Source: a bacterium (GTDB lineage Bacteria > UBA9089 > CG2-30-40-21 > SBAY01). From it: DNA of 33,168 nucleotides. The stretch is from contig JBFLYA010000014.1 in NCBI GenBank assembly GCA_040757115.1, forward strand, positions 1-33,168, in the 5' to 3' direction. The notes beneath the pieces were generated by a model. The model was not told where the DNA came from. It was given only the letters and a program-made list of their open reading frames with translations, and ran no database searches. Every line of letters starts with the position of its first letter. Within the stretch, counting starts at the first letter, position 1. Below are positions 12,968 to 33,168 of the stretch, piece after piece. Both the position numbers and the translations under genes were made by a program.

Positions 12968-13040
12968 CTGGGGTGGAAGGACTCGAACCTCCGAATGCGG
13001 GAGCCAAAGTCCCGTGCCTTACCAACTTGGCGACACCCCA
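12968..13040 (-). tRNA. tRNA-Gln (TTG)
   Basis: TGGGGTG/CACCCCA acceptor stem, CGGGA-CTTTGGC-TCCCG anticodon arm, GGTTCGAGTCC T arm; followed by CCT, so CCA is not fully encoded. Confidence 0.95.
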
Positions 13041-23454: not shown

Positions 23455-24162
23455 CTATAGTCTACTGTCTGAATCACAGGCCCCTTGTAAGACAATTGTT
23501 AATTCACCCTTTGGTAGAGTTAAATTAAGTTTTTCAATCACTTCGCTTATCCTTCCTCGAAGGACTTCTTCAAATTTTTTTGTCAATTCTCGCATCACCG
23601 CCATTTGTCTATCTCCAAGAATTTCTAAGATATCATTTAGACTCTTGAGGATACGGTGCGGGGATTCAAAAAATACCACCACCCTTTTTTCTTCCTTTAA
23701 TTTTTTGAGAAGTCTTATGCGGTTTTTGTGAGTAGATGGCAAAAATCCTTCAAAGATAAAATGTTTTGTCGGAAAACCTGAAATGACTAATGCTGTAAGA
23801 ATAGCTGTTGGACCAGGAATCGGAACTATTCGTATTTTATTTTCTATTGCCTGACAGACTAAATCATACCCCGGGTCTGATACGCCAGGCATCCCGGCAT
23901 CCGAAACTAAAGCTATATCCCTACCTTTTTGTAATAAGTTAATGAGATACTTACCTTTTTTAAACTTGTTATGTTGATAGTAAGAGGTAATTTCAGTTTT
24001 GATTTGATAATGATTTAAAAGTTTTTTTGTAACCCTTGTATCTTCAGCGGCAATTAAATCTACCTCTCTGAGGACGCGCAATGCCCTTAAGGTAATATCT
24101 TCTATGTTTCCAATTGGAGTCCCACATAGATAAAGTGTTCCCACTGATACTTTTTTATCCAT
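23455..24162 (-). CDS. rsmI: 16S rRNA C1402 2'-O-methyltransferase
   Basis: GTPIGNIEDITLRA, AAEDTR, SDAGMPGVSDPG, FEGFLP, ESPHR, RELTKKFEE. Confidence 0.97.
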   Translation of the reverse strand: MDKKVSVGTLYLCGTPIGNIEDITLRALRVLREVDLIAAEDTRVTKKLLNHYQIKTEITSYYQHNKFKKGKYLINLLQKGRDIALVSDAGMPGVSDPGYDLVCQAIENKIRIVPIPGPTAILTALVISGFPTKHFIFEGFLPSTHKNRIRLLKKLKEEKRVVVFFESPHRILKSLNDILEILGDRQMAVMRELTKKFEEVLRGRISEVIEKLNLTLPKGELTIVLQGACDSDSRL

Positions 24163-24389
24163 AATTTTATCTATTAAATGATGATGTTGTTAATTATATC
24201 ATAACTATACCTACCTTTGTCAAGAAACTTTTGCACGATAACAAAATATTATAGTAGTTATTAACGAAAATTTCTCATAGAACAGATATAGCAACAGGGT
24301 TGATGGTTTATAGTTTATAGTTTATAGTTGATAGTTTCATAGACTATCAACTATCAACAATACTAATGTGAACTTTTGGTTAATACTTA

Positions 24390-25466
24390 CTATGATTTAA
24401 TAGAAACAGGCAACAGATGAACAGAAGTGGCTTTAAATATTAAATAAACTTCAGAACCTGATTTTAGTTCCAGTGAAATTACTGATTGTTTTGTAACAAG
24501 AGAAGTTAGTGATAAATTATTGCAACTAACCTCAACGGAATAAATTGCGCCAATATTCTCAATTTTTTTAATTTCCCCTTTAAAGCAGTTGCGTGCTGAG
24601 GAAACAATGGGAGTTTTTGAAATTAAGATATCTTCAGGTCTTATAATTCCTGTCACCTTACCGGATAATATATTATTTACAACATTTATTTTTAAGCCAC
24701 CTGCCAGAAGATAAGTTTCTTCCCTTTCTTTTAAAATCTCACCTGAAAATATATTTTCTGAAAGTGAAAATTCAGCAATATCTACGGATAATGGAGTTTC
24801 AAAAATATCTTTACTATTTCCTTCCTGAACGATTTCTCCGTTTTTTAAAAAAAATATTTTATTAGCAAAATGTCTTGCTTGAAGTAAATTGTGAGTGGTA
24901 AGAATTATTGTTTTTTTTGATTGGACAAGTTCAAAAATAATCTCTTGAATCCTTTTTGTAGTTATTGGGTCTAAATTACTTGTTGGCTCATCAAGAAGGA
25001 ATAAATCAGGATTAACCATCAAAACTCTGGCAAGTTGTAATCTCTGTTTTTCTCCACCTGAAAGTTTTTTGGCATCTTTGTCTATTTTATCAGACAATCC
25101 AATCCTATGAATTATCTCTTCGATTTGAGGTTTTTCAATCTTTAATTTGCGATAATTCAAAGGATAAATAATATTCTGGTAAACAGTTCCTTCTAAAATA
25201 ATTGGATTCTGAAAGACAAAACCAATTTTTCGTCGGCAATTCAATTTATCTCTTGAGGTAAATTTAGCCGAAGAATCTCCGTTATAAAATATCTCTCCTG
25301 AAGTAGGTTTATCAAGAAGTCCGATTATTCTTAAAAACGTGGTTTTACCTGCACCATTTGGACCAATGAGGACATTTATATTTTCAGGTCCAAAATTTAA
25401 GTTTATATCTTTTAAGATATTTAATCTACCAATTTTTTTATTTAGGCTTTTTACTTTTATATTCAT
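24390..25466 (-). CDS. tupC: Tungstate ABC transporter ATPase with C-terminal TOBE domain
   Basis: GPNGAGKT, LSGGEKQR, LDEPT; C-terminal SSARNCFKG...IFKATSV. Confidence 0.85.
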   Translation of the reverse strand: MNIKVKSLNKKIGRLNILKDINLNFGPENINVLIGPNGAGKTTFLRIIGLLDKPTSGEIFYNGDSSAKFTSRDKLNCRRKIGFVFQNPIILEGTVYQNIIYPLNYRKLKIEKPQIEEIIHRIGLSDKIDKDAKKLSGGEKQRLQLARVLMVNPDLFLLDEPTSNLDPITTKRIQEIIFELVQSKKTIILTTHNLLQARHFANKIFFLKNGEIVQEGNSKDIFETPLSVDIAEFSLSENIFSGEILKEREETYLLAGGLKINVVNNILSGKVTGIIRPEDILISKTPIVSSARNCFKGEIKKIENIGAIYSVEVSCNNLSLTSLVTKQSVISLELKSGSEVYLIFKATSVHLLPVSIKS

Positions 25467-26149
25467 TTTCCCTGTATTATTTGTAAAGGTATATTTATAA
25501 TTACGGCTATAAAAAGAAGCACAATACCTATGGCAATCCCTGTTTCAAAATTCCCTTTCATTGTCTCAAGTGCAATTGTTGTCGTCATAACTCTTGTCTC
25601 GCCTTTTATATTTCCGCCTACCATTAAAGTCATACCCGTTTCTCCAATAATTCTTGAAAAACCGGTAATTATAGCGGTCAGGAAGGCAAATTTTCCTTCT
25701 TTAATTAATGTTAAAGCCATCTGAGACCTGCTTGCACCCAGAGAGTAAGCAATATCTTTGACATCTTTAGCAATTCCTTTTAAGGCAGAAAGAGAGAGGG
25801 CACAAATTATTGGTGTGGCAAGGAGTGCCTGAGCAATTATTATGGCAGAGGGTGTGAAAAGTAAGCCAAATACACCAGCAGGTCCTTTTCTTGATAAAAA
25901 TATATAGACTAAAAGTCCAATCAATACTGCCGGGAGTGCAAGCCAGGTATTGATTATACCAACAAGGACTCTCTTGAATTTGAATTCTTTGATAGCAAAA
26001 TAGAGACCTATTGGTATTCCAAAAATTCCAGCAATAATAGTTGCACTTCCAGAAACTACTATTGAAAGAAGAACAATTTCAATTATCTCCTTTTTGGGAG
26101 GCAATAAAAGTAAAAATCCCTGTTTTATTCCTTCATATAGATATTCCAT
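25463..26149 (-). CDS. tupB: Tungstate ABC transporter permease
   Basis: SRKGPAG, LLFTP, MVGGNIKGETRVMTTTIALET. Confidence 0.9.
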   Translation of the reverse strand: MEYLYEGIKQGFLLLLPPKKEIIEIVLLSIVVSGSATIIAGIFGIPIGLYFAIKEFKFKRVLVGIINTWLALPAVLIGLLVYIFLSRKGPAGVFGLLFTPSAIIIAQALLATPIICALSLSALKGIAKDVKDIAYSLGASRSQMALTLIKEGKFAFLTAIITGFSRIIGETGMTLMVGGNIKGETRVMTTTIALETMKGNFETGIAIGIVLLFIAVIINIPLQIIQGK

Positions 26150-26979
26150 TAGAATTTCACCACATCAGGAAAATAAAGTGGTTCTCCAAATTTTTTAATC
26201 CCAAAATTTTTAATAATTTTTTGCCCCTCATAACTTCTTATAAAATCTGCAAATTTTTGGGCTAACTTAAAATTTACCCGGGGAAATTTTGTTGGAGAAA
26301 CAACGATTACTGAATACGGGTTATAAAGTATGGAGTCACCTTCAACAAGTATTTCAAGCACATCAATCTCTTTTTTATGAGATAGCCAGGTGGCGCGGTC
26401 AACAAGGCAATATGCATTTTTCTCCTGGGCAATTCTTAAAGTCATCTCCATTCCTGTGCCACTTTCAATATAAAAGTCTCCAGATGGTTTTATATTTAAT
26501 TGTTTCCATATATTTAATTCTTTTTTATGTGTCCCTGAATCATCTCCGCGTGAAACAAAAGGTGTTTTTGATTGATATATTTTTTTAAATGAATTTAATG
26601 CCTTATCCTCTTTTATTCCAGCCGGGTCATTTTTAGGGCCTACAATTAAGAAATCATTATGCATCACATCAAGTCTTTTTATACCATAACCATCCTGGAC
26701 AAATTGTTCCTCTGACACCCTATCGTGAACTAAAAGCACATCAGCATTTCCATCCTTAGCAAGACGAATTGCCTGTCCTGTGCCAACGGCAATTACCTTA
26801 ACAGAACAATCATATTTTTTCTCAAATGCAGGAATTAGCACATCAAATAGACCCGAGTCCAGTGTGGATGTTGTTGAAGTAAGAATAAGTTTTTGTTTTG
26901 CAAAAGATTGATTATTAAATACAACTAAACTAAAAAACATAAACAAGAAACTAATTGAATGAAAGGTTTTAGGATTCAT
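26149..26979 (-). CDS. tupA: Tungstate-binding protein
   Basis: Signal peptide, TTSTLDSGL, VGTGQA, SRGDDSGTH, DRATW. Confidence 0.92.
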   Translation of the reverse strand: MNPKTFHSISFLFMFFSLVVFNNQSFAKQKLILTSTTSTLDSGLFDVLIPAFEKKYDCSVKVIAVGTGQAIRLAKDGNADVLLVHDRVSEEQFVQDGYGIKRLDVMHNDFLIVGPKNDPAGIKEDKALNSFKKIYQSKTPFVSRGDDSGTHKKELNIWKQLNIKPSGDFYIESGTGMEMTLRIAQEKNAYCLVDRATWLSHKKEIDVLEILVEGDSILYNPYSVIVVSPTKFPRVNFKLAQKFADFIRSYEGQKIIKNFGIKKFGEPLYFPDVVKF

Positions 26980-27023
26980 ATTGTTAACTTCCTGATTTCT
27001 GCAATAATGATGTTGTTATTTTT

Positions 27024-27259
27024 GTAACCGTTCAGGTGGTGTAACAAAAGGAGATGTGGAGATTAAGGAGATAGGGAGATATTATAAAAAAATTGAAATT
27101 AATAGAAACTAATAGAAATTTATGGAAATTTGTTGTTTTCCACAATCAATTTCTACCTATTTCTATAAATTTCAATCTATTTCTATTATCTTATCTCCAT
27201 ATCACTCTTATCTCCTTATCCCCTTTCTTACACTTTTGATATATAGCCTGAACGGTTAC
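27024..27259. mobile_element. GTAAC-family MITE-like element, copy 2
   Basis: GTAACCGTTCAGG...CCTGAACGGTTAC, near-identical to 898-1134. Confidence 0.9.
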
Positions 27260-27483: not shown

Positions 27484-30400
27484 TTATGCTTTTAGAAGAT
27501 TTAGGCACTTCTGATACCAGGGATGCTCTCTGGGAAGGGTCTTCTCAAAGATGCTTAATGCCAGATTAAATAACTTAATCGCCTCCTCCTTCTTCCCTGT
27601 ATCACGATAAGCAATTCCTAAGTTCATCTGGCATAAGGCATAATCTGGATGGTTCTGCATCTGGTTATCTTCATATATCCTTATTGCCTTCTGATATGCC
27701 TCTATTGCCCGCTCATAGTCTAATTTGTTCCGATAAGCCTCCCCTAAGTTCATCTGGCATAAGGCATAGTCAGGATGGTTCTGCATCCTGTTCTGCTCAT
27801 ATATCCTTATTGCCTTCTGATATGCCTCTATTGCCCGCTCATAGTCTAATTTGTTCTGATAAGCCTCCCCTAAGTTCATCTGGCATAAGGCATAGTCTGG
27901 ATGGTTCTGCATCTGGTTATCTTCATATATCCTTATTGCCATCTTAAATGCCTCTATTGCCCGCTCATAGTCTAATTTGGCATCATAAGCAAGTCCTAAG
28001 TTCATCTGGCAGCCGGCATATTCAGGATGGTTCTGCATCTGGTTGGCAGAATAAATCTTAATCGCCTCTTGATATGCCTCAATTGCCCGCTCATAGTCTA
28101 ATTTCTCCCAATAAGCAGTCCCTAAGTTCACCTGGCATTTGGCATAGTCTGGATGGTTCTGCATCTGGTTATCTCCATATATCCTTATTGCCTTCTGATA
28201 CGCCTCTATTGCCCAGTCATAGTTTAATTTGCCAGCATAAGCATTCCCTAAGCTCATCTGGCATAAGGCATAGAATGGATGGTTCTGCATCTGGTTTGCA
28301 GAATAAATCTTAATCGCCTCTTGAAATGCCTCAATTGCCCGGTCATAGTCTAATTTGCCATCATAAGCAATCCCTAAGTTCATCTGGCATAAGGCATAGT
28401 CTGGATGGTTCTGCATCTGGTTATCTTCATATATCCTTATTGCCATCTTAAATGCCTCTATTGCCCGCTCATAGTCTAATTCCTTAGCATAAGCAATCCC
28501 CAGTCTCTGCAGTTCATCAGGAGATATTGGCTCTTGAGGTAATTCTTTCTTTTCTTTTTCTTCCTTAAAAGGCAATATTTGTTTTATAATCTCTGTGATA
28601 ATTTCTCTTACCTCTTTGGTTTGGCGATTGATAATGTCCTCATTGGGTGTTTCTAAATACCCGGCAATTATCCTTAAGGGAAAGAGAAAGGCTACTTTAT
28701 CCTTTATCTCAGATACCTCAAGGGTATCAATGAAATATAGGACACTCTGAGGTCTATTTTCTTTTAAAATCTCAATAAGAAGCTGAACAAGGAGACGCTC
28801 AAAGCCTACCTCCTCTTCCTTGATTTTATTCTTATCCAGGATAATTCTGATTTTAATGAGTTTATTTATATATTCTTTCATCCTTTTAAGATTCTCTTTA
28901 AGGGCTAAATCAAGGGTTGCATCCACATAGAATCTAAGTAATAGTGCCAGGCTTGATTTAATCTCTAATCCCTCTTTTTCTAAAAGTGCCAGGTCAGTAA
29001 TCTTTTCCAGGCAGGTTAGTGTCTCTTCATACCGACCAAGTAAATTCAATACTGACACTTTATTTATCAAGGATTGAATATCTTGCGGGTCTTTCTCTAT
29101 CGCTTTATTAAAGCAATTAAGGGCTTGTGCATAATCACCAAACCTGAGAAATGCCTTTCCCCTACCAGCCCAGAGGGAGGGAATATCTGGATATTGGAAG
29201 ACTGCCTGGTTATAATATTCTAATGCATCTTTGTCCCAGGCTATCTTTAATAGCCTTTCTCCCTTATCTACTATCTCTTTTATCTTCCTCTTTTTTACCT
29301 CTTTGAGATAGCTCAGGTGCACCTCAATCAAGTTTCTCTTTTGAAAAGAATCCACATTTTTACATTCCTCTTCCATATTTTCTATCTCTAAATCAAGTTC
29401 TGGGAGTGAATACCAGAGGCTGATGAACCTTAAAAGCCATTCAAACCTCTTTCTCTGAGTAGTAGATGAGCGCATCTGATACCATATTCTAAATAACTGT
29501 TCTACGACATCATAATAGAATGTGCCTCTTTTTTTCCCTTTTTGCACAGGTTTAAGGTATCCATCATCCACTAATACCTTGATCACAGCGGTTGTCTTAT
29601 TGAGGGGGAACCTCAAGAGTTTTGCAATGTATGAAGGAGAGATACCTTCTTCCATATCAGTAATATCTATCTTAGAAAAGCCTGCCATAATCTGGCGTTT
29701 TTGGGGAGATAATGCCTCCATCTTTGCCTTAAAATATGGGGTCATTTCACTGATAAGTTTATCAAAGGCATCTTCTACCGCGGGGAGTTTACCCGCAGTA
29801 AGTATCTGGAATAGAAAGAGGAGTAAGCGCGGATTCCCACCTGTCAAATGATAGATAGACTTAATCCTCTGTTCATAGGCAGCAAAAGAGGTAAGTATTT
29901 CCTGGTGCTCAATAGCGGTTGCCCAATTTTTAATAAAGATAAGACCTTGCTCAACAGGTAGCTCAACTAAATTTATCCTTTGAAAAAGGTGGTATAAGGG
30001 AGCCTTATAATCGATGACCTCTTTGAATACAGTAGCGGCACTACCAATAAGTAGCAGGATACCTTCATCCATAAGGAATGTCCGTAGCCTCTTTAAGGAT
30101 AAGGAATCCATAAACCCTGAACTAAGGATCTGGTCAATATTATCTACCAAAAGTAGTATCTTCCTTTTATTATTAGTGGTGAACCTTTCAAGAGAGGCGA
30201 TAATCTCATCCACTAACTTGCGGTCATCCTTTTCATCCTTAATTCTTGCTTCAATCCCATTCATCCAATCAGGAAGGCTACCTAACTCATCTCTTATCTC
30301 CTCAACGAGCCGTTCAAAGAAACCCCGTAAATTAACCACAGTATACTCCTCTTCTGCAAATTGGAGAGGGAGCCATTGTTGCGGAGACTCTTCCTTTATC

Positions 30401-30597
30401 CTGAAGTAGAGCATCCTTAAGAGATGTGTTTTCCCAATTCCCCTTGGACCAGTAATAAGATAATGTTGTAGGTTCTTGTAGTCAGATTGGGCTTTGATAT
30501 TAGATACCATCTCTTCAAACAATTCTTCCCTGCCCGTAAATGTGGCTTTGAGCTCATCATATTTATAATTTAGTGGGTCATAAGGGTATATCTTCAT
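27484..30597 (-). CDS. STAND-like P-loop ATPase with probable winged helix and C-terminal TPR repeats
   Basis: FTGRE, Walker A GPRGIGKT, Walker B LLLVDNID, TGGNPR; TPRs near aa 450-540 and 42-aa repeats at the C-terminus; start placed at MKIYPY (ATGA overlap), GTG at 30612 is the alternative. Confidence 0.88.
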   Translation of the reverse strand: MKIYPYDPLNYKYDELKATFTGREELFEEMVSNIKAQSDYKNLQHYLITGPRGIGKTHLLRMLYFRIKEESPQQWLPLQFAEEEYTVVNLRGFFERLVEEIRDELGSLPDWMNGIEARIKDEKDDRKLVDEIIASLERFTTNNKRKILLLVDNIDQILSSGFMDSLSLKRLRTFLMDEGILLLIGSAATVFKEVIDYKAPLYHLFQRINLVELPVEQGLIFIKNWATAIEHQEILTSFAAYEQRIKSIYHLTGGNPRLLLFLFQILTAGKLPAVEDAFDKLISEMTPYFKAKMEALSPQKRQIMAGFSKIDITDMEEGISPSYIAKLLRFPLNKTTAVIKVLVDDGYLKPVQKGKKRGTFYYDVVEQLFRIWYQMRSSTTQRKRFEWLLRFISLWYSLPELDLEIENMEEECKNVDSFQKRNLIEVHLSYLKEVKKRKIKEIVDKGERLLKIAWDKDALEYYNQAVFQYPDIPSLWAGRGKAFLRFGDYAQALNCFNKAIEKDPQDIQSLINKVSVLNLLGRYEETLTCLEKITDLALLEKEGLEIKSSLALLLRFYVDATLDLALKENLKRMKEYINKLIKIRIILDKNKIKEEEVGFERLLVQLLIEILKENRPQSVLYFIDTLEVSEIKDKVAFLFPLRIIAGYLETPNEDIINRQTKEVREIITEIIKQILPFKEEKEKKELPQEPISPDELQRLGIAYAKELDYERAIEAFKMAIRIYEDNQMQNHPDYALCQMNLGIAYDGKLDYDRAIEAFQEAIKIYSANQMQNHPFYALCQMSLGNAYAGKLNYDWAIEAYQKAIRIYGDNQMQNHPDYAKCQVNLGTAYWEKLDYERAIEAYQEAIKIYSANQMQNHPEYAGCQMNLGLAYDAKLDYERAIEAFKMAIRIYEDNQMQNHPDYALCQMNLGEAYQNKLDYERAIEAYQKAIRIYEQNRMQNHPDYALCQMNLGEAYRNKLDYERAIEAYQKAIRIYEDNQMQNHPDYALCQMNLGIAYRDTGKKEEAIKLFNLALSIFEKTLPREHPWYQKCLNLLKA
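27622..28503 (-). repeat. Seven tandem 126-bp intragenic repeats (42-aa TPR units)
   Basis: Consensus LGxAYxxKLDYERAIEAYQKAIRIYEDNQMQNHPDYALCQMN, highly similar at DNA level. Confidence 0.95.
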
Positions 30598-32063
30598 TGC
30601 CTTCTCCACCAATCTTTAAGTATTTTGCAGAAAAAGGAATATTTGCCCTCATTATCCTTTTCAACATAGAACTCATCTGATAGATAGGTAAGTATTTCTC
30701 TGAAATCTTCTTTATCTTCCTTGCCTGAATACTCCTTATACCATTCAAATAATTGGCTTTCAGAGACCTTATCCTCAAGGGAAAGGCGTTTTAAAAGACC
30801 AGCTAAGAAGATATATGGATGAGATTGTAATCTCTGGAAGAAGTAAAAGAAGTATTGTTTGTAGTCTGGACCCAATATCTTCTCCTGATATATCCTTTTA
30901 ATCTCTTCTGGTGTTATCTTTTCTTTGACCTCACAAAGAAGCATCTGGATAAAGTAAGGGACACCTTGTCCAACCAGGTTAAAGACCTCTTCTTTGACCT
31001 CATCTTTAATCCTTATCTTCTTTGAAAGAAGGAGTTCATCAATAAATCTTAATGCCTCATCTTTTGAAAGGGGTGGTATCTTAACCTCTATAAAGTCATT
31101 AAAAAACCTATCAAGTGAGTGAGATTTAAGGTATTGATTAAGGCAGACAGAACTTGCGATAAGGAAACGAAGTTTATTCTTCTTCCTTTGCTCAAAGAAC
31201 CATTCAGCAAAGGAGGAAGCCTCTTCTTTTTTAAAATTCTCCATCATATAGATAAATTCATCGAATAGCAATAGGAAATAACTATGGTTGGGAATCCTTT
31301 CAAGGAGCTTTCCCAGGAAATCTTCACCCATTTTTTGCCAGGTGTTATCCTTTACCATCTCCTCAATCTGCATTTTTAAAGAAAGGTTATCCATGCCACT
31401 GGGATTATACATTTCTATTATCTCCTCAAATCCTCTATTTTTTTCTTGTGTGCAGAAGCGAGCTATCATCTCTGCCACAAATCCTTTTGGGTGGTGGATA
31501 TGTTGTAGTTCTAAATGAAGTGTCTGCCAGGCAGGCTTTGGGTGGTCATAGAGGTAATACATACAAGAGGTTTTGCCAAATCGCCGTGGAGCGCTTAAAA
31601 AGATATTTTCAGTCTTAAGCTTTTCCCATAAACCTTCAATAAATTCTTCGCGATTGTAGAAATTATCCCCTCGCACTACTGCCCCAACAATGTTGTTCGG
31701 ATAGATATACCGCTTACCCTGCTTTAGGCTCAAGAGATGTTTCTTAAACAGGTATTCTTTAATCTTTCCGGAGCTGGCATTGTAAAATTCCTCCTCAAAA
31801 AGGCAATGCACCTCTTCCTTAGTCAACCCATACTCATAAAAAGGGAATTGAAGGAAGCTATAGACAGGAACATTCTCCATTTTCATATCCCCGCCAAATA
31901 CCTCTTTGATGAGTGCATTTACCCCTTTAAAGAGGGCTTCAAATCCAAAAGGGTCTTTTATAGATTCTATACCCAGAAAGAGAGGATAAATCTTTTTTTC
32001 GGTTGGAGATTCAATAAGGACTAAAAACCCACCTTTATCTAAAAAATTATCCATTTTTTTCAT
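30594..32063 (-). CDS. P-loop ATPase (STAND/archaeal-ATPase-like) with unknown ~115-aa N-terminal domain
   Basis: GDNFYNRE, Walker A APRRFGKTS, Walker B LLLFDEF, GVPYFIQ, C-terminal ILKDWWR. Confidence 0.85.
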   Translation of the reverse strand: MKKMDNFLDKGGFLVLIESPTEKKIYPLFLGIESIKDPFGFEALFKGVNALIKEVFGGDMKMENVPVYSFLQFPFYEYGLTKEEVHCLFEEEFYNASSGKIKEYLFKKHLLSLKQGKRYIYPNNIVGAVVRGDNFYNREEFIEGLWEKLKTENIFLSAPRRFGKTSCMYYLYDHPKPAWQTLHLELQHIHHPKGFVAEMIARFCTQEKNRGFEEIIEMYNPSGMDNLSLKMQIEEMVKDNTWQKMGEDFLGKLLERIPNHSYFLLLFDEFIYMMENFKKEEASSFAEWFFEQRKKNKLRFLIASSVCLNQYLKSHSLDRFFNDFIEVKIPPLSKDEALRFIDELLLSKKIRIKDEVKEEVFNLVGQGVPYFIQMLLCEVKEKITPEEIKRIYQEKILGPDYKQYFFYFFQRLQSHPYIFLAGLLKRLSLEDKVSESQLFEWYKEYSGKEDKEDFREILTYLSDEFYVEKDNEGKYSFFCKILKDWWRRQ

Positions 32064-32770
32064 TCCTCCTCGTGTAATATCTTTTTGCGAAGATAATCAA
32101 AGAATTCGTCAGCAATATAAAGCAATTCACTCATTGCACCCATTTTTATCCTATCCTTTTTATCTATCTCTTTTCCAATCCTAATCTTTTCATAGATAAG
32201 ATTATGGTCTTTCTTATCCCATGCCTCCTGAAGCATAGTCATAATCTGTAGTTCTACCTTTCGTTTGGTCTGATTAAGGGTTGACTCCAGGATAAAATGG
32301 TATGCCCGATGGGGTCTATCCCTTTCCATAAAGACATAATCCGTTTCTTCAACAATTCTACAGATTCCTTTTATGACCTCATTATCTCTTATAGAGTTGG
32401 CTATCTCAGATATATCAGAGAGATAATTACAGACTATTCTCATTCTGGCAATATCCTCCATCTCTTCGGCAAAATTATCTTGATTATACTTATTTGGGTG
32501 TTGAATAATCTTTTCTACAATCCGTCTTGGGGATTTTATATCCTCTTTACCTTGAATAACCCGAGCAAATTCCCTGTTTTCTTTTTCGCGGTATTTTTTA
32601 TTCAGCGTATTGATGATATCTTCTATTGCAGGCTTAACAGCCCCCAGGATAGATTTATTGAGTTGTATTTGCTCTTTAATGTCCTCCTCCCACTTTTCTG
32701 ATGAAGGGAAATTTGTGTTTATGAATTCCTGGAAACATTTTTCATCTACAGGTTGCTTGTTGTGTTTCAT
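32060..32770 (-). CDS. RelA/SpoT-type synthetase-domain protein (small alarmone synthetase-like), divergent
   Basis: IKSPRRIVEK, EDIARMRIVC, DYV, HRAYH, VELQIMTMLQEAWDKKDHNLIYE; start placed at MKHNKQ after AAGGA. Confidence 0.82.
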   Translation of the reverse strand: MKHNKQPVDEKCFQEFINTNFPSSEKWEEDIKEQIQLNKSILGAVKPAIEDIINTLNKKYREKENREFARVIQGKEDIKSPRRIVEKIIQHPNKYNQDNFAEEMEDIARMRIVCNYLSDISEIANSIRDNEVIKGICRIVEETDYVFMERDRPHRAYHFILESTLNQTKRKVELQIMTMLQEAWDKKDHNLIYEKIRIGKEIDKKDRIKMGAMSELLYIADEFFDYLRKKILHEEE

Positions 32771-32895
32771 CGTTGCATTCCTTTGGTGTCTATATGTCCT
32801 GCTATCTGGAGGTCTATGTAGTTCAGGCAGATAGACATTCAGGCACCAGGTTACTGAAGAGTTAAAATTGCACAATAATTTTATTGCACAATATA

Positions 32896-32924
32896 TTTAT
32901 AGCATAACATATCTATTTTGTCAA
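32896..32924 (-). promoter_or_regulatory. sigma70 promoter for the SAS-ATPase-ATPase/TPR operon
   Basis: TTGACA-17 bp-TATAAA with extended TG. Confidence 0.7.
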
Positions 32925-32955
32925 GAGGCTGACCGAGAATTTTTTAAAAATATTG

Positions 32956-33028
32956 GTAAGCGTTCAGGTGGTGTAACAAAAGGAGATGTGGAGATTAAGG
33001 AGATAGGGAGATATTATTAAAAAAATTG
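32956..33028. mobile_element. Truncated GTAAG-family element, copy 3
   Basis: Matches the first ~73 bp of the 898 element, then is interrupted by a GTAACTATTCACC end at 33029. Confidence 0.85.
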
Positions 33029-33133
33029 GTAACTATTCACCATTCACCATTCACAATTCACCATTCACAATTTCTTCCCTAAATTTCCTTAATAATGGTG
33101 AATGGTGAATTGTCAATTGTGAATTGTGAATTA
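33029..33133. repeat. GTAAC end followed by inverted (CATTCAC)n/(GTGAATT)n 7-mer hairpin
   Basis: About five units per arm. Confidence 0.8.
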
Positions 33134-33168
33134 TCACTCTTCACGGTGTCAAGCAAACCTGGCCCAAG

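Follow-up and report, generated by a model that had tools for sequence, protein, structure and literature searches.

What does a nucleotide pyrophosphokinase do when the residues with which its relatives grip their substrates have been replaced and those with which they catalyse the reaction have been kept? The question is raised by a gene near one end of contig JBFLYA010000014.1 (GenBank assembly GCA_040757115.1), from a bacterium of the GTDB lineage UBA9089; CG2-30-40-21; SBAY01, of which a stretch of 33,168 nucleotides, referred to here as the window, was analysed. This gene, gene 1 (32060..32770, minus strand), encodes a 236-aa small alarmone synthetase (SAS) of the RelA/SpoT fold belonging to an altered clade, and is followed by two ATPase genes, genes 2 and 3. 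Enzymes of this fold were once believed to make (p)ppGpp only, and were later shown also to make (pp)pApp and to pyrophosphorylate tRNA. An earlier note on the same DNA had pointed out the altered motifs of gene 1 and had offered an altered acceptor, an ATPase-gated enzyme or a pseudo-enzyme as possible explanations. The explanation that we favour, and to which we give an even chance of being right, is that the product of gene 1 is still an active pyrophosphokinase, that its acceptor is non-canonical, and that it carries out the response of a defence-like system in which one ATPase is the sensor and the other the helper.

The reading frame of gene 1 is intact, running from an ATG at 32770 to a TGA at 32062-32060, with an AAGGA 9-14 nt 5' of the ATG, which is the likely start codon. 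A start at the upstream TTG at 32875 is unlikely, as it would add 35 residues that are absent from every homologue, the homologues starting where the ATG does. Placement of the protein in the synthetase (SYNTH) superfamily is supported by a profile match, by the fold and by the presence of the Asp and Glu that hold Mg2+. The Pfam model RelA_SpoT (PF04607) matches residues 78-194 with an E value of 4.7e-12 and 46.6 bits, above the curated cut-off of 27, and the best sequence match among solved chains is 6fgk (E 1.9e-13, or 7.3e-19 with the family profile). The AlphaFold2 (AF2) model of gene 1 (pLDDT 90.1, pTM 0.86) matches RelQ 5ded (VIA Z 18.9) and RelP 6ewz (18.3) over about 190 residues, the C-terminal helix included, followed by CapRel 7ztb (14.3), the exported SAS SaEAS 8vx3 (12.9), Bacillus subtilis Rel 8acu (11.6), Tas1 6ox6 (11.1) and, weakly, FaRel2 8pu3 (6.6); a Foldseek search with the same model gave RelP/RelQ at E 7e-11, consistent with the VIA result. 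Since the Z-scores are highest for RelQ and RelP, gene 1 as modelled is structurally closest to the housekeeping SAS and not to the known toxic ones. Other marks of the superfamily are missing: of the Arg pair that clamps the donor adenine the first member is D77 and the second is R111, the Tyr of the G-loop is H154, and the NCBIfam equivalog model NF053588 (GTPPhKinYjbM) gives gene 1 58.2 bits against a cut-off of 320. PADLOC returns a domain-level match to PDC-S33 (positions 42-174 of 349, E 6.1e-11) that reflects the shared SYNTH domain only, and we found no paper using the name PDC-S33 in the literature searched.

The motifs were placed by HMMER alignment of gene 1 to solved RelP and RelQ chains, and these alignments bear out all of the substitutions that the earlier note had listed (DIKS, DIARMR, PHRAYH, ELQIMT and YE), each of them encoded, like the gene itself, on the minus strand. 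In place of R-x-K-S, where RelP has S-R-V-K-S, gene 1 has E-D-I-K-S, so that in D77-I78-K79-S80 (32531..32542) the Arg that serves the adenine clamp and the alpha/beta-phosphates is gone and the Lys is present. In the alignment to chain 3l9d only, the RxK Arg falls opposite K75 by way of a two-residue insert, and the K75 column is unconserved in the family. The D-x-x-G-x-R motif, DIAGVR in RelP, is D106-I-A-R109-M-R111 (32438..32455), with the catalytic Asp and the second clamp Arg present and the Gly changed to Arg. The G-loop motif G-Y-R-S-x-H corresponds to P153-H154-R155-A156-Y157-H158 (32297..32314), where the RelP segment N-G-Y-R-S-L-H pairs with R-P-H-R-A-Y-H (R152-H158) and the equivalent of the acceptor-stacking Tyr is H154. 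E-I-Q-I-R-T is represented by E173-L-Q175-I-M177-T178 (32237..32254), which retains the catalytic Glu and the Gln and has Met for Arg, and the terminal Y-K by Y193-E194 (32189..32194), the H..Y-K of RelP pairing with H189..Y193-E194.

The roles of several of these residues are known from characterised enzymes. In Staphylococcus aureus RelP, R78 and R112 stack the donor adenine, the phosphates are bound by K80, K88, R91 and S84, Mg2+ is held by D107 and E174, and the ribose is bound by H190. The equivalents named for FaRel2 in PMC11782079 are R64, K66, S70, K74, R77, D90, G93, R95, E145, Q147 and Y128, and Y128A and D90G are reported to abolish both toxicity and tRNA labelling (bioRxiv 10.1101/2021.04.30.441581). 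In Thermus thermophilus Rel, combined substitutions at R249, D272/R272 (the text has both), R277 and Y329 strongly lower activity (bioRxiv 10.1101/670703), and the G-loop Arg of RelQ, the equivalent of R155, mediates allosteric ordering (PMC5794853). Measured against this list, gene 1 lacks the first clamp Arg and the acceptor Tyr and retains the residues that hold Mg, two of the Lys that bind phosphate, the second Arg of the clamp, the Gln and the His that binds the ribose.

These substitutions are shared by a whole family. A word-index search with gene 1 found 21 further proteins at E <=1e-3 among 181 candidates; 20 of these were aligned, a 133-aa fragment (P0010) being left out, and all 20, at 36-59% identity to gene 1, carry the same signature. 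When 1.84 billion cluster representatives were searched with a profile, 4998 matched at E <=1e-3, 608 at 1e-10 and 53 at 1e-30. For residue counts, 169 proteins from both searches, those from the profile search being its best matches and not all 4998, were aligned to the family profile, and rows with at least 140 aligned residues were kept, giving 85 altered and 73 canonical proteins. Position 77 is Arg in 7/85 altered rows compared to 68/73 canonical rows, position 109 is Arg in every altered row and Gly (67) or Ala (6) in the canonical ones, and position 154 is Tyr in 0/85 altered rows (H38, E31, V6, I4, N3) versus 69/73. Position 177 has no Arg or Lys in the altered set (0/85; M62, Q9, V8, A2, T1), whereas all 73 canonical rows have one or the other (R 70, K 3), and position 194 is Glu in 79/85 altered rows and Lys in 56/73 canonical rows. 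An Arg anywhere in the stretch before K79 was seen in 24/85 altered rows, against 73/73 canonical ones. The G-loop of the altered rows is longer by about 2 residues and richer in basic ones (median 4 versus 2 in the canonical set), and contains any aromatic residue in only 44/85. The contrast between the two sets goes far beyond what chance would produce.

Set against these losses, the residues of the catalytic core are retained across the altered rows (D106 in 85, E173 in 84, Q175 in 83, K79 in 81, K87 in 79, R111 in 85, H189 in 84 and R155 in 81 of the 85), and four charged residues are near-invariant in the altered set only, namely R66 (81), D185 (83), K187 (76) and R197 (82). As catalytic residues are kept and new invariant charged residues have appeared beside them, the active site is best read as rewired under selection rather than relaxed, and the earlier observation that the catalytic Asp and Glu are kept while substrate-binding positions are changed holds for the family as a whole. 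Clustered at 50% identity, the best matches include about 85 clusters of the altered family, drawn from several phyla, and no characterised member of it was found in the literature searched.

The altered family forms a distinct clade, apart from the canonical RelQ/RelP-like enzymes. A quick maximum-likelihood tree of 171 rows, built on all columns, separates 85 altered proteins and 3 with Ala at position 109 from 75 canonical ones, and the split has an SH-aLRT (Shimodaira-Hasegawa-like approximate likelihood ratio test) value of 88. After 10 signature columns were dropped, the altered label requires 2 changes on the tree (88 altered versus 83 canonical rows), and the starred branches of this column-stripped tree are compatible with a single origin of the label. 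The NCBIfam YjbM model, with its cut-off of 320 bits, was also scanned against 14 single-domain canonical neighbours and 5 members of the altered clade: 8/14 of the canonical neighbours scored 117-257 bits and the other 6 scored 80-117, while the window protein, P0008, P0042, P0126 and P0158 scored at most 64 bits or gave no score. Neither the tree nor the YjbM scores group the family with ordinary ppGpp-making SAS bearing the same substitutions, an outcome that the earlier note had considered. The family may already bear an RSH (RelA/SpoT homologue) subfamily name in Jimmy et al. 2020; the readable part of the text of that supplement gave 0 relevant matches to the family motif strings, and the organism names of our loci occur there only in long RSH entries.

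Two further observations concern the neighbourhood of the clade. P0140 and P0168 are intermediate forms, with Arg for the Gly of DxxGxR and with the G-loop Tyr and the Y-K Lys kept. Many of the next-best matches after the family (P0064, P0069, P0074, P0079-P0081 and others) contain two tandem SYNTH domains within 412-464 aa; the motifs are mostly canonical in each half, and the YjbM scores of these proteins reach 309 bits.

How does the altered family compare with synthetases of known function? The housekeeping (p)ppGpp synthetases RelQ (SAS1/YjbM) and RelP (SAS2/YwaC), which are the best matches of gene 1 in both sequence and fold, have in common with it the catalytic Asp and Glu, the Gln, the two Lys that bind phosphate, the second Arg of the clamp, the His at the ribose and the Arg of the G-loop. 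Unlike them, the altered family has no R-x-K-S Arg, G-loop Tyr, EIQIRT Arg or Y-K Lys, has Arg for the Gly of DxxGxR, forms a separate clade with an ATPase gene adjacent, and is patchy in distribution, with several copies in one genome. The toxic SAS (toxSAS) that act as tRNA 3'-CCA pyrophosphokinases, such as CapRel SJ46, FaRel2 and PhRel2, share the SYNTH fold (CapRel is matched by the family profile at E 1.2e-5) and also lie in tight operons with partners, and a growth-arrest role is plausible for both groups. However, the toxSAS are neutralised by small structured antitoxin domains (pZFD, PAD1/Panacea) and not by ATPases (PMC11782079 and PMC10440598), and in the literature read they keep the stacking Tyr that the altered family is without. 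A conserved acceptor Tyr together with a large positive patch is likewise described for Rel, RelP and Tas1 in PMC11782079. The (pp)pApp synthetases (Tas1/Apk1, FaRel and the exported SaEAS), again of the SYNTH fold, provide a precedent for altered acceptor specificity, but they pair with Tis1-type immunity proteins, SAH partners or export signals, none of which is found in the cassette described below. The likeness to pApp-making or tRNA-pyrophosphorylating toxSAS that the earlier note had proposed is therefore a loose one, as the toxSAS keep the acceptor Tyr, no altered protein has it, and the fold is nearer to RelQ/RelP than to CapRel, Tas1 or FaRel2.

The proposal of a link with an ATPase fared better, being borne out by the order of the genes. 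Gene 2 (30594..32063, minus strand) encodes a STAND-like P-loop NTPase of the ATPase_2/Arch-ATPase type, 489 aa in length, with the Walker A motif APRRFGKTS, DE as Walker B and a winged helix at the C terminus. The ATG of gene 2 and the stop codon of gene 1 overlap as ATGA, within GAATGA, and GGAGGA lies just 5'. In the gene 2 family, P159, R160, R161, G163, K164, S166, D268 and E269 are invariant, and the Pfam models ATPase_2 and AAA_14 match 13/15 and 14/15 members, respectively. The AF2 model of gene 2 (pLDDT 88) has as its top folds the archaeal Walker ATPases 2qen and 2fna, followed by ORC/Cdc6, Avs3, plant NLRs (nucleotide-binding leucine-rich repeat proteins) and CED-4. The N-terminal domain of about 130 aa is specific to the family, and a protein-atlas search with residues 1-128 gave no usable match. 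A complex prediction of gene 2 with the synthetase scored 0.00, which has no bearing either way on binding.

Gene 3 (27484..30612, minus strand) encodes a second STAND-like NTPase, of about 1040 aa, in which the ATPase module (ATPase_2 4.7e-12, AAA_16 6.6e-12) is followed by an array matching tetratricopeptide repeat (TPR) families. Within the gene, a tandem TPR array at 27606..28481 (minus strand) consists of 7 copies of a 126-nt (42-aa) unit with 82% matches between copies. The listed start of the gene is a TTG at 30612, but the start is likely to be the ATG at 30597, which overlaps the stop codon of gene 2 as ATGA (CAATGAAG). The profiles of genes 2 and 3 match one another by hhalign with a probability of 97% and an E value of 1.1e-10 over 326 columns, and this profile-profile match shows their NTPase modules to be paralogues. 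Both proteins are built as STAND-type P-loop NTPases, each with a helical and winged-helix module and invariant Walker A and B motifs; a C-terminal repeat sensor is present in gene 3, as the TPR array, and gene 2 has no repeats. An effector fused to the NTPase was found in neither, gene 1 being the only enzyme-like output and a separate gene, and a search for longer, fused forms of the synthetase found none, which is weak evidence. The P-loop NTPase, winged helix and C-terminal repeat sensor are shared with the STAND/NLR-like sensors (Avs, bNACHT) and conflict systems; the differences are that the cassette NTPases are of the ATPase_2/Arch-ATPase type and not NACHT, that there are two paralogous NTPases, one of them sensor-less, and that the effector is a separate coupled gene.

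Both junctions in the window are thus ATGA overlaps, and genes 1-3 can be read as a translationally coupled three-gene cassette with the synthetase first. To follow this arrangement elsewhere, loci were scanned with one genome per species, which gave 17 loci whose record titles name Bacteroidota, Desantisbacteria, WOR-3, Deltaproteobacteria/Desulfobacterales, Lentisphaeria, Nitrospinae, Acidobacteria and Archangium. A gene 2 homologue lies directly 3' of the synthetase in 16/17 loci, adjacency that together with the stop/start overlap carries the ATPase link, and the spacing of the two genes lies between -20 and +36 nt. The full set of three genes occurs in 13/17; two loci (L004 and L013) stop inside gene 2, one (L015) has an HpaB gene where gene 3 is expected, and one (L017) holds a synthetase remnant only. 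No small open reading frame (ORF) and no HD hydrolase was found among the cassette proteins, and there is accordingly no adjacent or fused small antitoxin, the neighbours of the synthetase being ATPases of 489 and about 1040 aa. The trio of synthetase, STAND and STAND-TPR proteins was found in no published description in the literature searched.

The genome from which the window comes encodes one long RSH and three synthetases of the altered family, each heading its own cassette (contigs C46, C166 and C412). The two paralogous synthetases have 46% and 35% identity to gene 1, and their cassettes (C166:1362-5114 and C412:15180-19949 of genome G000) are both complete. In the C166 cassette the third gene encodes 524 aa and is followed by a separate 309-aa TPR ORF (431-1360); downstream of the C412 cassette are two ORFs, one of 832 aa that has an HNH-like Cys/His motif and one of 375 aa that has a P-loop. 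Among the 61 genomes searched, consisting of the window genome and 60 relatives, 7 have a family member. In the relatives, loci L025 and L026 show the synthetase followed by gene 2, and L023 and L024 duplicate L001 and L002. A further locus, L027 (G024:C178), is decayed, with matches to synthetase residues 66-141 and gene 2 residues 289-397 beside an intact gene 3 start.

The fold, the residue pattern, the status of the family as a clade, the cassette as a mobile and self-contained unit, and its spread are established by this analysis, and it is from these that we infer catalysis, the identity of the acceptor, the direction of signalling and a role in defence. On the donor side, the enzyme would retain the machinery for Mg2+/ATP pyrophosphoryl transfer (D106, E173, Q175, K79, K87, R111 and H189) and would have a rebuilt adenine clamp, in which the lost Arg of R-x-K-S is replaced by R109 and/or R66. 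R109 lies on the same strand face as R111 in the AF2 model (strand 108-114) and may stand in for the first clamp Arg. On the acceptor side, the stacking Tyr, the EIQIRT Arg and the Y-K Lys are gone, the G-loop is more basic, and R66, D185, K187 and R197 are new. The enzyme would still move pyrophosphate from ATP to a 3'-OH, but in view of these acceptor-side changes the acceptor is probably not free GDP or GTP bound in the canonical manner. Gene 3, with its STAND-like module and fast-evolving TPR array, would sense the trigger, and gene 2, a repeat-less paralogue with a unique N-terminal domain, would act as helper or adaptor; together the pair would switch the synthetase on, leading to growth arrest in the manner of abortive infection or conflict systems. 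Because the synthetase is constantly accompanied by two sensor-type ATPase genes, the cassette is likely to be an immune or stress switch. The defence reading draws support from the accessory, multi-copy and cross-phylum distribution of the cassette and fits published lists of effectors, where alarmone synthetases appear among the effector domains of bacterial NACHT and conflict systems (bioRxiv 10.1101/2022.07.19.500537 and PMC7159879).

Several points weigh against this explanation. STAND-TPR proteins include non-immune regulators, and gene 3 itself matches MalT-type TPR and AfsR models. Genes 2 and 3 are not represented as a system among the PADLOC models, whose matches are limited to PDC-S33 for gene 1, at the level of the domain, and a weak mad8 for gene 3. 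The flanks of 14 loci have no gene in common and are mostly housekeeping or metabolic, not recognisable defence islands; the exceptions, with neighbours of a defence type, are HEPN_LA2681 (L008), DUF4276 (L016), RhuM (L001) and Fic (L010). No family member was found on 72,556 plasmids or in 50,697 phage records, which yielded only distant canonical SAS at <33% identity. The split between altered and canonical proteins is supported (SH-aLRT 88) but is not a starred branch, and the long-branch proteins P0140 and P0168 combine R109 with the Tyr and fall on the canonical side. The acceptor, the product and any toxicity are predictions. Lastly, the clamp Arg and the G-loop Tyr are residues whose mutation cripples characterised RSH enzymes, and with both missing a loss of activity is possible.

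This last point leads to the suggestion, also present in the earlier note, that the protein is a pseudo-enzyme, binding ATP and serving as a scaffold or adaptor for the ATPases without transferring pyrophosphate. Substitutions at the equivalents of the two lost residues, in combination in Rel or singly in FaRel2 (Y128A), do abolish or strongly lower activity in the studies cited above, but a protein released from catalysis would hardly be expected to hold D106 in 85, E173 in 84, Q175 in 83, K79 in 81, K87 in 79, R111 in 85 and H189 in 84 of 85 rows, or to gain new invariant charged residues beside the motifs, and given the invariance of its Mg and ATP ligands we consider a pseudo-enzyme very unlikely. 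Strain-specific decay of an ordinary SAS gene has a negligible probability and was rejected: the frame is intact, all 85 family rows, with identities of 36-60% and lower, bear the same signature, conservation extends to the operon partners, and no point in its favour was found.

A physiological signalling module, in which the STAND-TPR protein senses a metabolite or stress in the manner of MalT and the ATPase pair tunes a synthetase making (p)ppGpp, pGpp or a near analogue, deserves more weight, although we hold it to be unlikely. It would account well for a fold nearest to that of the housekeeping RelQ and RelP, down to the C-terminal helix, for the MalT-type TPR and AfsR matches of gene 3, for the mostly metabolic flanks and for the conservation in 81/85 rows of R155, the Arg responsible for allosteric ordering in RelQ (PMC5794853). 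It sits less easily with the absence of the acceptor-stacking Tyr from 85/85 rows and the loss of basic residues at 177 and 194, with a genome that already has a long RSH and carries three divergent copies of the cassette, with the patchy distribution (7/61 genomes searched), and with the lack of a DNA-binding output domain on either ATPase. The synthetase could instead be a signal generator and not the killing effector. Once triggered, it would make a novel pyrophosphorylated nucleotide, for which the N-terminal domain of gene 2, or else some receptor encoded elsewhere, would be the reader. PMC7159879 and bioRxiv 10.1101/2022.07.19.500537 count RelA-type domains among the generators of nucleotide signals in conflict systems, and the family-specific domain of about 130 aa in gene 2, which is without known function, could be the reader. 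That domain has, however, almost no invariant polar residues with which to form a ligand pocket, and no nuclease, TIR, pore, protease or other effector is recognisable in the cassette; we regard this explanation as quite unlikely. An active enzyme with a non-canonical acceptor, under the control of the ATPase pair, remains the explanation that we favour.

The remaining features of the window lie around the cassette. Two tandem 16-mers, ATTGCACAATAATTTT and ATTGCACAATATATTT (32867..32898, no strand assigned), are situated about 100 nt upstream of gene 1 and are a possible operator. A 79-nt dispersed repeat occurs at 32950-33028 and 27018-27095, flanking the cassette, and again at 893-970; it has 159 matches of at least 60 nt on 125/462 contigs of the genome, resembles REP (repetitive extragenic palindromic) or MITE (miniature inverted-repeat transposable element) sequences, and has no Rfam match at the gathering score. 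Next to it, within 33029-33168, an inverted repeat has 38-nt arms built of ATTCAC[AC] heptamers (33035-33072 and 33094-33131) that are 89% complementary. The inverted repeat belongs to a second dispersed element, which has 78 matches on 42 contigs, 21 of them within 300 nt of a contig end, and may account for the fragmented assembly. The only Rfam match at the gathering score in the window is a tRNA gene at 12968-13040 (minus strand). Downstream of the cassette (23455-26979, minus strand) are genes for a periplasmic-binding protein, a permease and an ABC ATPase that has a TOBE domain, together a transporter set of the molybdate/tungstate type, and then a tetrapyrrole methylase; neither the transporter set nor the methylase occurs beside the cassette at the other loci.

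The protein would thus be an SAS-fold enzyme that serves a STAND-type system as effector or as source of a signal, and the signature of its active site is undescribed in the literature read. A clade that has lost two residues treated in that literature as invariant and essential, and that has kept its catalytic core, is a promising place to look for another class of substrate. Its fixed association with two paralogous STAND-like ATPases, one of them without a sensor, would likewise offer a simple three-gene model of an NLR-like pair controlling a separate enzyme. A bolder version of the explanation, which we think distinctly unlikely, is that the whole clade consists of pyrophosphokinases for a new kind of acceptor, whose Tyr-less, Arg-rich G-loop binds a polyanion, either an RNA 3' end other than the tRNA CCA read by the toxSAS or a non-purine or protein-linked acceptor, and that these enzymes are switched on by a hetero-oligomer of the TPR-sensor STAND and the repeat-less helper STAND. 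If this were true, the cassette would be a bacterial counterpart of the sensor/helper NLR pairs of plants, with an enzyme of the RelA/SpoT fold as its executioner.

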